Below, in pieces: positions 51,041-57,294 of a stretch of DNA of 63,272 nucleotides. Position numbers and translations under genes: made by a program. Source of the stretch: an uncultured Bacilli bacterium (GTDB lineage: Bacteria > Bacillota_I > Bacilli_A > RF39 > UBA660); the NCBI GenBank assembly GCA_947589515.1, contig CANQBE010000003.1, positions 1 through 63,272 on the forward strand, given 5' to 3'. Within the stretch, counting starts at the first letter, position 1. The number at the start of each line of letters is the position of its first letter. The notes below the pieces were generated by a model that worked only from the letters and a program-made list of their open reading frames with translations, did not search any database and had not been told where the DNA came from.

Positions 51041-51069
51041 TTGTTTTTAGAAGGAATGAGTGGTATAAT
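51041..51069 (+). promoter_or_regulatory. sigmaA-type promoter of the 31-aa repeat gene
   Basis: TTGTTT-17 nt-TATAAT with extended -10 TG; AAGGAGG RBS downstream. Confidence 0.6.
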
Positions 51070-51100
51070 ATATCCCAATTAAAAAGGAGGGAATGTAATT

Positions 51101-53296
51101 ATGGTAACAAGTTTAGAATTAAAAGAAGTATTACAACATTATCTAAGTTTAGAACAAGTTAATTCCTTCCTAAATAAAAAAATCAATACTTTATGTAAAC
51201 GGGGAAATATTAATAATATTGATAAAATATTAAAAGTACTTCAAAAATACCAATTATTAAATTTGGTATTACTATGTCCAACTATATTAGTCCAAGGAAA
51301 CAGCCAGGAAATCAAAAATATTTTAAATTTATTAGAAAGTAAGGGTTTATTAGGATTAATAAACACTTGCCCAACTATATTAGCCCAAGGAAAAAGTCAA
51401 GAGATAGAAAAAATTTTAAAATTATTAGAAAGTAAGGGTTTATTAGGATTAATAAACACTTGTTCATCTATATTAGTTTTTGGAAACAGTCAAGAAATCA
51501 AAAATATTTTATGCTTGCTAGAAAGTAAAAATTTATTAGGATTAGTAAACACCTGTCCATATATATTAGCCCAAGGAAAAATTCAAGAGATAGAAAAAAT
51601 TTTAAAATTATTAGAAAGTAAGAATTTATTAGAACTAATCAATACTTGTCCATCTATATTAGCCAAAGGAAAAAGCAAGGAAATCAAAAATATTTTAAAC
51701 CTATTAGAAAGTAAAGGTTTATTAGGATTGGTAAACACCTGTCCAACTATATTAGCCCAAGGAAAAATTCAAGAGATAGAAAAAAATTTAAAATTATTAG
51801 AAAGTAAAAATTTATTAGGATTAGTAAATACTTGCCCAAGCATATTAGCTCAAGGAAAAAGTCAAGAAATCAAAAATATTTTAAGTTTATTAGAAAGTAA
51901 GAACTTATTAGGATTACTGAAAACTTGTCCAACTATATTAGTAAAGGGAAACAGCCAAGAAATCAAAAATATTTTAAACCTATTAGAAAGTAAAGGTTTA
52001 TTAGGATTGGTAAACACCTGTTCATCTATATTAGCCCAAGGAAAAATTCAAGAGATAGAAAAAATTTTAAAATTATTGGAAAGTAAGAATTTATTAGAAC
52101 TAATCAATACTTGTTCAACTATATTAGCTCAAGGAAACAGTCAAGAAATCAAAAATATTTTATGCTTGTTAGAAAGTAAGAACTTATTAGGATTACTGAA
52201 AACTTGTCCAACTATATTAGCAAAGGGAAACAGTCAAGAAATCAAAAATATTTTAAATTTATTAAATGATAAGAGTTTATTAGGATTAATTAATATTTGT
52301 CCATCTATATTAGCCCAAGGAAGAAGTCAAGAAATCGAAAAAATTTTAAATTTATTAGAAGGTAAGAACTTATTAGGATTAGTAAATATATATCCAACAA
52401 TATTAGCCCAAGGAAACAGCCAAGAAATCAAAAATATTTTAAGTTTATTAGAAAAATATAATATTGATTTAGAATTACTTTCACCATTTCCCTATTTGTT
52501 ACTTTCCTATTCTAAAGTAAGATCTATTTTAGAACATGATCGTAATCATTTAACAGAAGAAGAATTTTGGATGAATGTTAGAATCTATTTAAAAATAACC
52601 GATCATTATAATAAAATCTATAATCAGGAACAAATCATAGAATTATCTCAAATTTTAAAAATAGATACCAATCAATTATTAGAAAATATTATGGGAAAAA
52701 GTATTAATTTAAAAGAAGTACTTAAACAAAAGGGTTCTATTTGGATAGGGGATTATATTTCTTGTACGAAAGAACAGCTACAAGAAAATCAAATATTAAT
52801 TATAAAGATTACGGAAATGGTTACTAAAAGTTTTATCAAAAAACATAAAGATTTCAATATAGATTATTCTGATTTATATGATTATGTATTAGATATATTA
52901 ATCAATCGATGTGGTAATCTATTGATTAATACGACTTCAGAAGAAAATTTGAGAAAAGCGTTATATATATATCTAATGAAATACTGCTATCACATGATTT
53001 CAAATAGAAAGTATGTAGATTATGAAAAAATAAGTAACATTCAAAAATATAGTAGTCAAGATTTTTATCAAAGTAATTTTGTACAAAATTATTCCTTTTT
53101 AACAGAAGAGGAACAGTATTTTTTAGAGAAAATGTCTCAATATATAGAATTGGGTGGAGACTACATGAGATTATTAAAAGAAGAATGGAATTTAACAGAA
53201 GAAGAAATTCAAGAAAAAATGAAAACGATTAAAGAAAAAATATCTAGTAGCAATTATCTATCGGATATTGGTAAGAGCAAGTACTTAAAAAAGTAA
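51101..53296 (+). CDS. Protein with 13 tandem 31-aa helical repeats (mTERF/TALE-like) and a sigma-70-like C-terminus
   Basis: Repeat consensus LLGLVNTCPTILAQGNSQEIKNILNLLESKN (aa 52-454); aa ~557-637 and ~667-714 resemble sigma regions 2 and 4. Confidence 0.6.
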   Translation: MVTSLELKEVLQHYLSLEQVNSFLNKKINTLCKRGNINNIDKILKVLQKYQLLNLVLLCPTILVQGNSQEIKNILNLLESKGLLGLINTCPTILAQGKSQEIEKILKLLESKGLLGLINTCSSILVFGNSQEIKNILCLLESKNLLGLVNTCPYILAQGKIQEIEKILKLLESKNLLELINTCPSILAKGKSKEIKNILNLLESKGLLGLVNTCPTILAQGKIQEIEKNLKLLESKNLLGLVNTCPSILAQGKSQEIKNILSLLESKNLLGLLKTCPTILVKGNSQEIKNILNLLESKGLLGLVNTCSSILAQGKIQEIEKILKLLESKNLLELINTCSTILAQGNSQEIKNILCLLESKNLLGLLKTCPTILAKGNSQEIKNILNLLNDKSLLGLINICPSILAQGRSQEIEKILNLLEGKNLLGLVNIYPTILAQGNSQEIKNILSLLEKYNIDLELLSPFPYLLLSYSKVRSILEHDRNHLTEEEFWMNVRIYLKITDHYNKIYNQEQIIELSQILKIDTNQLLENIMGKSINLKEVLKQKGSIWIGDYISCTKEQLQENQILIIKITEMVTKSFIKKHKDFNIDYSDLYDYVLDILINRCGNLLINTTSEENLRKALYIYLMKYCYHMISNRKYVDYEKISNIQKYSSQDFYQSNFVQNYSFLTEEEQYFLEKMSQYIELGGDYMRLLKEEWNLTEEEIQEKMKTIKEKISSSNYLSDIGKSKYLKK
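51254..52462 (+). repeat. 13 x 93-bp coding tandem repeat
   Basis: 31-codon periodicity visible in both protein and DNA. Confidence 0.95.
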
Positions 53297-53307: not shown

Positions 53308-53336
53308 TAAAAGACTAGGAAATAGTCTTTTTTTTT
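53308..53336 (+). terminator. Terminator after the repeat gene
   Basis: AAAAGACTA-GGAAA-TAGTCTTTTTTTT. Confidence 0.75.
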
Positions 53337-54737: not shown

Positions 54738-56492
54738 ATGTTTGAAAAAATTACTTATATAGGGGATACAGAGGTTGATATTAAGTTAGCTACAACCAAC
54801 AATATGCAGTCAGATATTATGAATATGCCTATTGTGTTACAAGATCAAGAAAAATCAATTTTAGCAGAAATTAAGGATTTACATCCTGACTATGTCAAAG
54901 CAAAAATGTTAGGTGAATTGATAGATGGAAAATTTATTGGTGGAATCTTAAGAAAACCAAGTTTAAATTCTACCGTTCGTTCTCTAAATGAAAGTGAACT
55001 TACCTATATTGTAGGGGAAGAAGGCAAAGGAAAATTACTATTAGGAATTAGTCCCTTTTATAACTCTAAAAAAATTTTTGTAGATATGAATGAACTATTT
55101 AGTAAACATATCTGTATTTTTGGTAATACTGGTAGTGGTAAAAGTTGTGGAATTGCACGTATCATGCAAAATACCTTTGCAAATCCTAATTTTATTCCGT
55201 TTCGTTCTAACTTCTTTATCTTTGATTCTTCAGGTGAATACTATTCAGCTTTTTCTAAAATAAATGAAATCAACCCTAACTATCACTATCGTTTTATTAC
55301 TACCAATTTAAATAGTGGTAATGATAGTGAATTACTAAGAATTCCACTTTGGTTATTAAATGTAGATGATATGGCTTTATTATTATCTGCAACTACTCAT
55401 ACTCAACTTTCTATTATTGAAAAAATGTTAAGATTAGTAAAAATCTTTTCTCAATCTGATGATTCTGCCATCAACTATCAAAATCATTTGATTGCAAGTG
55501 CTATCATGACTATTCTTTATTCAAATCAAAGTGCTGCCAGTAAAAGAGATGAAATCTTCTCTATCTTTAATACCTGTTCTACAGATGCCTTTAACTTAAA
55601 TGCAACCGTGCAAGGAATTGGTTATACTAGAAAACTACAAGATTGTTTCTTAATCGATTCAACAGATGACTTTTCAGAAAGAGTTTTATTAACAGAGTAT
55701 GTGAATAAATTTATTAATCCAGAATTAAATCAATATGAACCAGATAAAACGAACTATTTTACGTTAGAGATGCTAGAAAAAGCTTTAAATTTTGCTCTTA
55801 TCAGTGAAGGATGGCTTAGAAATGAAAATGTATATGCCGATGCTATTACCTTAAAAGTAAAATTACATGAATTAGTAATTGGTCCTAACAGTAAATTTTT
55901 CGATTACAAAGAATATGTAAGATTAGATCAATTTATCAGTAATTTAATTATTAAAGATGGTAAAAAGTATCAAATCGTCAATATTAATTTAGAAGATGTA
56001 GATGATGGTTTTGCTAAGAGTGTTGTAAAAATTTTTACACGATTATTATTTGAATTATCTAAGAAAGTACAAAGAGGTAGTATTCCATTTAACATTTTAC
56101 TAGAAGAAGCCCATCGATATGTACAGAAAGATACTGATGAATTCTTGTTTGGATATAATATCTTCGATCGTGTTGCGAAAGAAGGAAGAAAATATGGTGT
56201 CATTATGTCATTAATCAGTCAAAGACCAGTAGATTTATCAGATACGGTAATTTCTCAGTGTTCTAATTTTATTATTTTTAAGATGAGTCACCCTAGAGAT
56301 ATTGAATATATTACGAAAATGATTCCTAATATTACAGAAGATACCATAGAAAAACAAAAGTCTCTTCAGGTTGGAAATTGTTTAGTATTTGGAACAGGGT
56401 TTAAGATTCCATTAATTGCGAGATTAGAAATGCCAAATCCAATGCCACAAAGTAGTAGTTGTAATGTGGTAGAAACTTGGACAAGTAATTAG
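54738..56492 (+). CDS. HerA/FtsK-family ATPase (DUF87)
   Basis: Walker A GNTGSGKS, Walker B ILLEEAHRY, KEGRKYG, SQRP. Confidence 0.9.
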   Translation: MFEKITYIGDTEVDIKLATTNNMQSDIMNMPIVLQDQEKSILAEIKDLHPDYVKAKMLGELIDGKFIGGILRKPSLNSTVRSLNESELTYIVGEEGKGKLLLGISPFYNSKKIFVDMNELFSKHICIFGNTGSGKSCGIARIMQNTFANPNFIPFRSNFFIFDSSGEYYSAFSKINEINPNYHYRFITTNLNSGNDSELLRIPLWLLNVDDMALLLSATTHTQLSIIEKMLRLVKIFSQSDDSAINYQNHLIASAIMTILYSNQSAASKRDEIFSIFNTCSTDAFNLNATVQGIGYTRKLQDCFLIDSTDDFSERVLLTEYVNKFINPELNQYEPDKTNYFTLEMLEKALNFALISEGWLRNENVYADAITLKVKLHELVIGPNSKFFDYKEYVRLDQFISNLIIKDGKKYQIVNINLEDVDDGFAKSVVKIFTRLLFELSKKVQRGSIPFNILLEEAHRYVQKDTDEFLFGYNIFDRVAKEGRKYGVIMSLISQRPVDLSDTVISQCSNFIIFKMSHPRDIEYITKMIPNITEDTIEKQKSLQVGNCLVFGTGFKIPLIARLEMPNPMPQSSSCNVVETWTSN

Positions 56493-56502
56493 GAGAATAA
56501 TA

Positions 56503-57294
56503 ATGAAAGATAGTCAAGAAATTTATCAAGATTTAGTAAATCAATATCATAATTTAAGTGATTTAGAAAAAAATGCTATTCTGATTTACCAATCAAAATT
56601 ATTTATCATTATAAATAAAATTAGTCAGATTCCATATTTTGATTATCTTTCAGCTATGGAAATAAAAAGCAAAATACCAGATGCAGAAGTTTATGAAAAC
56701 ATACTAGCAGAATATAATAAAATAGTAAATAATCCCCAAAATTATTTTATAAAATATTCGATTTTTAAAGATATTCATTTAAATAATTTTGTATCTTTTA
56801 TTGAAGATGTAAAACGAATCTTACAATTATTACGTCAGGCTGCTTCCACGATGATTTTAAATGATGACTTAGTTGTATATCGTGGAATGGCTACAGATAA
56901 GGAATCCATCAATTTTACGGAAGGTGGTATTTGCATATCTACTAGTATAAAATTAGATACTGCTTTTCAATTTATGAAAACTGATAATGTGAAACCAGTA
57001 AGACACTTATATCAAATAAAATTGAATAGTGGAACTCCATTGTTTGTTTCTCCCTATAGTATTGTAAAAGTGTATGATTCGGTTTTAGATACTATGATAC
57101 CAATTGATAATCAATCTTGTATTTTAAAAATCATGAATCGTGGTACTGAAGGGCAATATGAAATTACTCTTATAAAAGATATGATAGAATATCAAGAATT
57201 AAGTTGTGAAAAAATTGAAAAAAATGGTAAAGTCATATTTGTACATCATATAGAAGTATTTGAAAAGAAGAAAAGTAATCAAGTAAATCTTTAA
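56503..57294 (+). CDS. ADP-ribosyltransferase-like protein (R-S-E clade, VIP2/C3-like)
   Basis: LSDLEKNAILIY...IIN, VVYRG, ISTS, GQYEITL. Confidence 0.7.
   Translation: MKDSQEIYQDLVNQYHNLSDLEKNAILIYQSKLFIIINKISQIPYFDYLSAMEIKSKIPDAEVYENILAEYNKIVNNPQNYFIKYSIFKDIHLNNFVSFIEDVKRILQLLRQAASTMILNDDLVVYRGMATDKESINFTEGGICISTSIKLDTAFQFMKTDNVKPVRHLYQIKLNSGTPLFVSPYSIVKVYDSVLDTMIPIDNQSCILKIMNRGTEGQYEITLIKDMIEYQELSCEKIEKNGKVIFVHHIEVFEKKKSNQVNL

Follow-up and report, generated by a model that had tools for sequence, protein, structure and literature searches.

For a long time, prokaryotes were believed to lack proteins of the mTERF family, and earlier literature describes them as missing there (bioRxiv 10.1101/2022.01.18.476766). 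The first bacterial relatives, called pTERF, were reported only in 2024 and are tandem 35-aa mTERF-like proteins found in metagenome-assembled genomes (MAGs) of gut Bacillota, with arrays of 3–11 units (Hu et al., NAR 2024; PMC11417379). pTERF1 binds ACTNNNAGTC with a dissociation constant (Kd) of 1.9 nM and reads a 10-bp motif; pTERF2 binds another double-stranded DNA (dsDNA) motif, likewise with a nanomolar Kd, so that motifs differ where arrays differ. The authors suggest reprogrammability and leave the specificity residues unnamed (PMC11417379). In human MTERF1, each motif has its central helix capped by a conserved proline, and these prolines "line the major groove". With eight motifs the protein follows 22 bp, and its base-reading R387 lies four residues past the one that takes the place of the proline in the final segment (PMC4705650). 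We analyzed a 63,272-nucleotide stretch of an uncultured Bacilli bacterium (GenBank assembly GCA_947589515.1, contig CANQBE010000003.1, positions 1 to 63,272 of the forward strand; hereafter the window) and studied one of its genes, a coding sequence of 731 aa (51101..53296, plus strand, from open reading frame [ORF] reading) for an mTERF-like repeat protein whose C-terminal domain is conserved.

On balance, we lean toward the gene encoding a bacterial mTERF-like (pTERF-like) solenoid DNA-binding protein, most likely a sequence-specific DNA binder that would be a pTERF-type protein with a shorter repeat. A regulatory DNA-binding role in the cell is, in our judgment, somewhat probable. A preliminary description, made from the DNA letters, had instead likened the array to that of TALE proteins and proposed that a few loop residues could specify bases.

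Anatomy, fold and turnover of the array

The protein begins with a cap (aa 1–49; 51101..51247, plus strand), a degenerate, repeat-like helical segment that is conserved across the family and in which AlphaFold2 (AF2) places helices at residues 4–12, 17–34 and 37–49. The array covers aa 50–452 (51248..52456, plus strand) and consists of 13 units of 31 aa (93 bp), recovered as in-register units in the translation, by Tandem Repeats Finder (TRF; period 93 x 12.7 copies) and in the AF2 model. The unit consensus is KNLLGLVNTCPTILAQGNSQEIKNILNLLES, laid out as a short helix at positions 6–9, the pair Cys10-Pro11, a second short helix at 12–16, Gly17 and a long helix at 19–31. Pro11 is present in 10 of the 13 window units and is nearly invariant across the family. 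A word-indexed search recovered 28 homologues sharing the plan of a cap, 3–13 units and the C-terminal domain (C-domain). The distribution of the 31-aa/C-domain family is patchy: genome scans located it in 7 of 29 genomes of the genus and in 3 of 120 other genera of the taxonomic family. Some genomes have several copies in tandem: G013 has three, and L002/G004 has two (979 and 824 aa); in L002, the closest relative, the pair lies between rnj and ftsY (L002:1393-6867).

Run on the family alignment, AF2 gave a mean predicted local distance difference test (pLDDT) score of 70, with values of 80–96 in the flanking units, and assigned each 31-aa unit three helices, the middle one capped by Pro11. 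Three short helices per motif of ~30–35 aa and a proline-capped central helix characterize mTERF proteins (PMC4705650), and the modeled window units show both. A Foldseek search against the PDB returned as its top match a designed left-handed alpha/alpha toroid (E = 0.11) and as its best natural match human MTERF3 (3m66; probability 0.91, E = 0.57, template modeling [TM] score for the target 0.39). The Pfam mTERF model (cut-off 23.1 bits) matched the homologues P0002, P0008 and P0019 with 35.5, 30.9 and 28 bits and, in the genome scans, the 75%-identical G005 orthologue with 27.8 bits and a G013 paralogue with 33.1 bits.

Several results weigh against an mTERF-type fold. The middle of the full-length AF2 model has a pLDDT of 40–60, none of the Foldseek E-values is significant, that of MTERF3 included, and the window protein itself has no Pfam mTERF match. 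Equally strong spurious Pfam matches (ALS_ss_C, Fungal_virus_P2_C) occur on the arrays of the family, and because spurious families score as high on the same arrays, we treat the mTERF matches as weak evidence. A profile–profile comparison (hhalign) of triplets of 31-aa units with triplets of 35-aa units scored 7.7, equal to column-shuffled controls, the 35-aa profile being narrow (effective number of sequences 1.4). Searches of PDB sequences with phmmer and profiles found nothing meaningful for the window protein, and Pfam, NCBIfam, PHROGs and PADLOC, applied to the whole protein and to both halves, gave only repeat-inflated or chance matches. Taken together, the models hint, without great force, at an array that is mTERF-like rather than TALE-like.

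The array contains a three-unit duplication (51713..52270, plus strand), seen in the DNA identity matrix and as a TRF period of 279: units 6, 7 and 8 (1-based; 51713-51991) are 96, 86 and 91% identical in DNA to units 9, 10 and 11 (51992-52270). TRF matches reached 84% at period 279 vs. 79% at period 93, and a lag of three units gave the highest mean DNA identity between units (0.837). The higher-order periodicity noted in the preliminary description is therefore real, and its proposal of growth by multi-unit duplication is borne out by the unit identity matrix and by blocks shared among orthologues. The two L002 paralogues, L002a and L002b, have a four-unit block in common, and L004 carries five-unit blocks at least 95% identical at a lag of 18 units. 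Orthologues with C-domains 74–84% identical contain 11, 13, 16, 21 and 26 units, and their strings of residues at unit positions 12 and 16 are quite different. As unit numbers and 12/16 strings differ between orthologues and multi-unit blocks are duplicated, the arrays, compared here in short-read MAG assemblies, appear to turn over quickly by multi-unit recombination; growth would proceed by unequal recombination involving blocks of one, two or three units. Upstream changes tracking the array changes, a possible sign of autoregulation, were not found: the upstream DNA is ~90% conserved and the arrays differ.

The antisense strand of related arrays is open over 154–835 codons (L004:3507-6014, L013:1416-2555 and L002:2039-2503, all minus strand); antisense frames of the window array are open over only 51 aa (51583-51738 and 51862-52017). 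Such open frames are most likely a by-product of a repeated A+T-rich codon pattern and not a gene.

Variable positions of the repeat unit

Compared with the translated units, the residue lists given earlier for the window array are exact: the two residues after Cys read PT, PT, SS, PY, PS, PT, PS, PT, SS, ST, PT, PS and PT, the loop series runs from VQGN to AQGN, and KN and EK alternate in helix 2. The scaffold is less constant than the "almost fixed" one described there, as the mean pairwise amino acid identity of the units is 0.73 and the invariant positions number 11 of 31 across the 13 units (13 of 31 across units 2–12). Likewise, hypervariable sites exist family-wide, but variation extends beyond a few loop positions: in this array it affects 20 of the 31 sites, most strongly 27, 7, 2, 18 and 12. 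The positions that had been singled out (11, 12, 15, 16, 18, 23 and 24) account for 42% of the pairwise differences, and positions 12 and 16 for 13%. Much of the variation in the window array belongs to two linked repeat subtypes and reflects the duplication history. K18, E23, K24 and K27 always occur as a set that defines an "EK" subtype, seen in units 2, 4, 6, 9 and 12, and since these units are 83–96% identical in DNA, the linkage indicates shared ancestry and not independent variation of the sites; variation at 18, 19, 23, 24 and 27 mostly marks the two subtypes. The original observation was in part confirmed, being real but overstated.

To map variability in the family, we computed the within-array difference rate over 15 arrays of at least five units. 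The rate was highest at position 16 (0.74) and position 12 (0.69), followed by positions 27, 23, 19, 24 and 9, the last with 0.54. Positions 12 and 16 are separated by a single turn of the short helix that Pro11 caps. A Nei–Gojobori count per codon position was run on the six arrays with DNA, comparing the proportion of nonsynonymous differences (pN) with the pooled proportion of synonymous ones (pS). pN exceeded pooled pS only at positions 16, 2, 12, 9 and 27 (1.43, 1.35, 1.14, 1.12 and 1.08), and positions 12 and 16 varied in all six arrays. Position 18 (N/K/R), which had been proposed to determine specificity, does not qualify: its difference rate across the family is 0.29, its pN/pS only 0.4, and in the window array it changes with the repeat subtype. 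For L004, an array that expanded recently (pS 0.156), pN was 0.37 at position 12 and 0.52 at position 16, with the ratio reaching ~3. Overall, the signal of selection at the hypervariable positions appears modest. Y12 and R16 occurred together 11 times vs. 5.3 in within-array shuffles (P = 2e-4; 14 lineages), a pairing expected for neighbors on one exposed helix face. The 31-aa family is net positively charged at positions 1, 8, 9, 16, 18 and 20 and negatively charged at 5, 21, 30 and 31.

An independent bacterial repeat family provided a parallel. The genome of the window gene also has a pair of canonical mTERF/pTERF-type genes with 35-aa repeats (products of 384 and 276 aa; G000:C17:3958-6288, minus strand, locus L006), with Pfam mTERF scores of up to 55 bits. 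Arrays of this type in the genus, with the unit LGYTKEEVIKMTKLLPALYSYSIDNIKQKIDDLIE, vary most at P+5 (0.67), P+1 (0.61), P+4 (0.54) and P-2 (0.53), counted from the proline. The offsets P+5, P+1 and P-2 are those of positions 16, 12 and 9 of the 31-aa unit, and the exposed K27/Q28/K29 of the 35-aa units are invariant. A 129-aa mini mTERF-like ORF lies between the two genes, and the locus adjoins hisS/aspS, downstream of spoIIP and gpr-like genes. Further 35-aa mTERF genes occur in G004, G005 and G024 of the genus and in G034. All four genomes of the genus with the 35-aa type (G000, G004, G005 and G024) also have the 31-aa/C-domain family; as these genomes are related, the co-occurrence does not amount to a statistical test.

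By analogy with MTERF1 and pTERF, the 13 near-identical three-helix units may stack as a superhelix along the major groove of dsDNA, with the Cys10-Pro11 turn and the Pro-capped helix 12–16 as the edge facing the nucleic acid. The residues that differ most between units are P+1 (position 12: T/S/Y/N) and P+5 (position 16: Q/R/K/F/H/E); P-2 (position 9) is less variable, positions 27, 23, 19 and 24 equaling or exceeding it. We regard P+1 and P+5, and less clearly P-2, as candidate specificity residues: positions 12 and 16, probably with 9, could tune the DNA step contacted by each unit. A unit would cover ~2–3 bp and not a single base. A code of one base per unit is, by analogy, unlikely, since MTERF1 covers 22 bp with eight motifs and pTERF1 reads 10 bp.

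This assignment of specificity has points against it as well. The hypervariable residues are placed on the nucleic acid-facing edge by analogy with MTERF1. The pooled pN/pS at positions 12 and 16 is barely above 1 and fits relaxed constraint at exposed sites equally well; the overall mutual information of the 12/16 pair does not stand out (rank 41 of 91); the net charge of the arrays spans –1.5 to +2.5 per unit across the family; and the repertoire of 12/16 pairs in the window array is small (TQ in five units, SQ in three, TK in two, and SF, YQ and SK).

The alternative that survives best holds that there is no code: the array would be a protein–protein or structural scaffold, or a nonspecific nucleic acid binder, and the variable sites would simply be the least constrained of the exposed residues, reshuffled through duplication, gene conversion and drift. 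We consider this a real though distinctly lesser possibility. It agrees with pooled pN/pS values of only 1.1–1.4 at the top sites, with the subtype linkage of most variation in the window array and with an array charge that is not uniformly basic. The number and order of units are free between close relatives, suggesting weak constraint on a particular target, and the upstream DNA stays conserved though the arrays change. What speaks against it is the selectivity of the variation. In L004, the exposed positions 19, 23 and 27 of the long helix are fully homogenized (pN 0), whereas positions 9, 12 and 16 stay diverse (0.37–0.52), and equal offsets from the proline are variable in the independent 35-aa family, in which other exposed residues stay fixed. 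Moreover, relatives of the 35-aa type bind specific DNA (PMC11417379).

C-terminal domain and genomic context

The C-domain (aa 453–731, 279 aa; 52457..53293, plus strand) is not part of the repeat array and was modeled by AF2 with a pLDDT of 82. It consists, in order, of a degenerate capping repeat, a helical domain with helix-turn-helix (HTH)-like segments, a disordered linker (~aa 636–659) and a terminal three-helix HTH-like unit, and it has no match in Pfam, NCBIfam, PHROGs, PADLOC or the PDB sequences. Its profile found 133 protein clusters among 1.84 billion representatives, with the domain always at the C terminus. It stands behind three types of array: the 31-aa type, a degenerate 32–37-aa mTERF-like type (P0062, P0078 and P0094) and tandem arrays of ~78-aa Xre/HTH_3-type units (P0112, P0115, P0121 and P0139). 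Because the C-domain is exchanged with a classical DNA-binding Xre-HTH module, we see in this distribution the best contextual argument for DNA binding by the arrays. The domain, of ~280 aa, would presumably act as a separate output module, for example by dimerizing, by touching DNA a second time or by engaging the transcription machinery.

On a Clostridia-type contig (L025:4525-9443), the gene for P0062, a distant C-domain protein of 715 aa, overlaps an upstream gene for an mTERF-like protein of 836 aa that is made up of repeats throughout and lacks the C-domain. A mini mTERF-like ORF of 116 aa comes next, and all three lie between holA and gpr. A search of phage and plasmid collections with the C-domain (tblastn) returned no match, and the idea of a mobile-element or phage regulator was dropped for that reason. 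PADLOC revealed no link to a defense system.

A more specific proposal makes the C-domain a divergent sigma-70 factor (sigma2-linker-sigma4), with the array providing promoter specificity. Its helix pattern is compatible with sigma2, a disordered linker and sigma4, and sigma factors were the most recurrent class among weak Foldseek matches in the PDB (SigA, WhiG, SigH) and in BFVD (phage extracytoplasmic function [ECF], FliA and SigF types). These matches, however, all have E-values of at least 0.8 and TM scores of 0.15–0.33. The models Sigma70_r2 (PF04542) and r4_2 (PF08281) find 8 and 12 other loci of the genome but not this gene at E <= 10, and sigma-70 models match none of 25 family members. 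Comparison of the C-domain family with the eight sigma factors of the genome by hhalign gave a probability of 1.3%, and a profile search of PDB sequences found no sigma factor. Distant C-domain members end in a winged helix-like hairpin, in one case matching the RuvB_C winged helix, and sigma4 has no such hairpin. The proposal is thus an unlikely one. Still more speculative is the thought that these proteins are natural "array-guided" transcription factors, in which a C-terminal module, perhaps sigma-like and in contact with RNA polymerase, delivers the output for interchangeable arrays, and P-2/P+1/P+5 form a reprogrammable code for steps of 2–3 bp; we would give it little weight.

Sigma-70-family genes number at least eight in the 1.1-Mb genome (contigs C1, C12, C18, C31, C27, C6 and C10) and, judged by motifs, include sporulation types resembling SigE/K and SigF/G. 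With these sigma genes and with gpr and spoIIP in its genome, this reduced gut bacterium probably sporulates.

A third explanation, that the array binds structured RNA as MTERF4 does or as plant mTERFs do on rRNA and introns, is doubtful. As no more than a lead, the residues found at positions 12 and 16 (S/T/N/Y with Q/R/K/E) resemble those with which PUF proteins and other helical-repeat readers recognize RNA. The mTERF family does have RNA-binding members (PMC4005652, PMC7826268). Against this, the sole tested prokaryotic relatives bind dsDNA (PMC11417379), the Xre-type HTH arrays with which the C-domain is exchanged are DNA binders, and neither an RNA-related domain nor an RNA-related neighbor was present.

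The gene is found once in a genome of 28% G+C that is 87% complete, and the closest relatives are rabbit-gut MAGs. It is preceded by an extended –10 promoter-like element, TGgTATAAT (51061..51069, plus strand), and a ribosome-binding site (RBS), AGGAGG (51085-51090, plus strand), both read directly, the function of the former being putative; the –10/RBS block is kept in the upstream regions of orthologues. Before ftsY, a hairpin resembling an intrinsic terminator (AAGACTA-ggaaa-TAGTCTT, followed by a T run; 53310..53336, plus strand) was also read directly and may serve that function. A consensus scan listed neither the TGgTATAAT element nor the hairpin, which is too A+T-rich for it. The annotated start of P0001 (684 aa) lies 15 codons upstream of the likely true start (L003:4813-4857); the first residues of P0001 are the translated promoter/RBS region, conserved with the window.

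Contexts compared across relatives differ and show no fixed neighbor gene. In the window and in L002, the gene sits between the gene for RNase J (rnj, minus strand) and ftsY; in L004, it follows ftsW; and the homologous genes lie before parE/parC for P0013 and between holA and gpr for P0062. A gene for a HerA-like ATPase follows ftsY-ylxM in the window (54738-57294). L002 has two such genes after ftsY, with no intervening ORF of at least 150 aa, ylxM (~96 aa) being below the listing threshold.

Comparison with described repeat proteins

TALE proteins, represented here by PDB 6jw3 in the Foldseek list, are built of two-helix units of 33–35 aa that each read one base through two adjacent loop residues, the repeat-variable diresidue (RVD); the likeness lies in tandem near-identical helical units, few hypervariable residues and growth by unit duplication. 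A G-K/N-S-Q/K segment at the N terminus of the long helix, positively charged at 18 and 20, is also loosely like the phosphate-contacting segment of TALEs. That the loop Q/K/F-G-N/K/R lets every 31-aa unit recognize a single base is nevertheless very improbable, as the array repeats every 93 bp (31 aa), AF2 models each unit with three helices, variability falls on positions 12 and 16 plus 9, 2 and 27, the TALE chain 6jw3_A ranks only eighth in the Foldseek list (probability 0.07, E = 6.3), below MTERF3, and phmmer found no TALE chain among PDB sequences at E <= 10. TALE superhelices are right-handed, and the top Foldseek match was a left-handed toroid. Membership in the TALE family was rejected on the period, the three-helix units, the Foldseek probability and the missing sequence match. 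The RVD-like principle has a real core, which lies at Cys-Pro-x12-I-L-A-x16 and not in the QGN loop, and its variable pair stands at i and i+4 on the Pro-capped short helix instead of being adjacent loop residues. The TALE reading picks the wrong kind of protein, and its logic holds in part.

The spacing of these residues recalls PUF (Pumilio) proteins, whose RNA-binding three-helix units of 36 aa hold the specificity residues on a short helix, spaced by one helical turn and taken from S/T/N/C/Y and Q/E/R/K alphabets. PUF units place a stacking residue between two edge-reading residues; in the 31-aa units, I13-L14 between positions 12 and 16 are invariant core. The likeness is one of functional analogy, and no search run returned a PUF sequence or fold match.

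If a positional code holds, the compact, regular arrays could provide a further programmable DNA-binding scaffold and a handle on the roles of mTERF-type proteins in bacteria. In two independent bacterial repeat families, the variability map points to matching positions near the groove-lining proline, which gives concrete residues to mutate in the search for a recognition rule. The conserved C-terminal module, itself undescribed, is combined in nature with at least three kinds of tandem array.

With eukaryotic mTERF proteins (MTERF1, 3MVA/3N6S; MTERF3, 3M66; PF02536), the window protein shares a three-helix motif, of ~30–33 aa in that family, with a proline-capped central helix and, by prediction, a solenoid of the left-handed type; MTERF3 is its best natural structural match, short of statistical significance. 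Unlike the organellar eukaryotic proteins with their degenerate, interspersed motifs, it is bacterial and has near-identical, strictly tandem units.

To the pTERF proteins (pTERF1, MBQ3414883.1), the locus would add a shorter, 31-residue version of the mTERF/pTERF-like repeat. It differs from them in its period of 31 vs. 35 aa, with helix 1 of the unit reduced to a single turn, and from the 35-aa type in having no Pfam mTERF match on the window protein and no profile–profile similarity. It has the conserved C-domain of ~280 aa, which the 35-aa proteins of the genome lack. The 31-aa family is set apart from pTERF here by the published description, and the two may overlap. Differing specificities of pTERF arrays were demonstrated by systematic evolution of ligands by exponential enrichment (SELEX), and the same would be expected of the 31-aa arrays. 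Both come from uncultured gut Bacillota, both consist of strictly tandem, near-identical three-helix units, and in both the number of units is variable, with 3–11 reported for pTERF and 3–26 in the 31-aa family.

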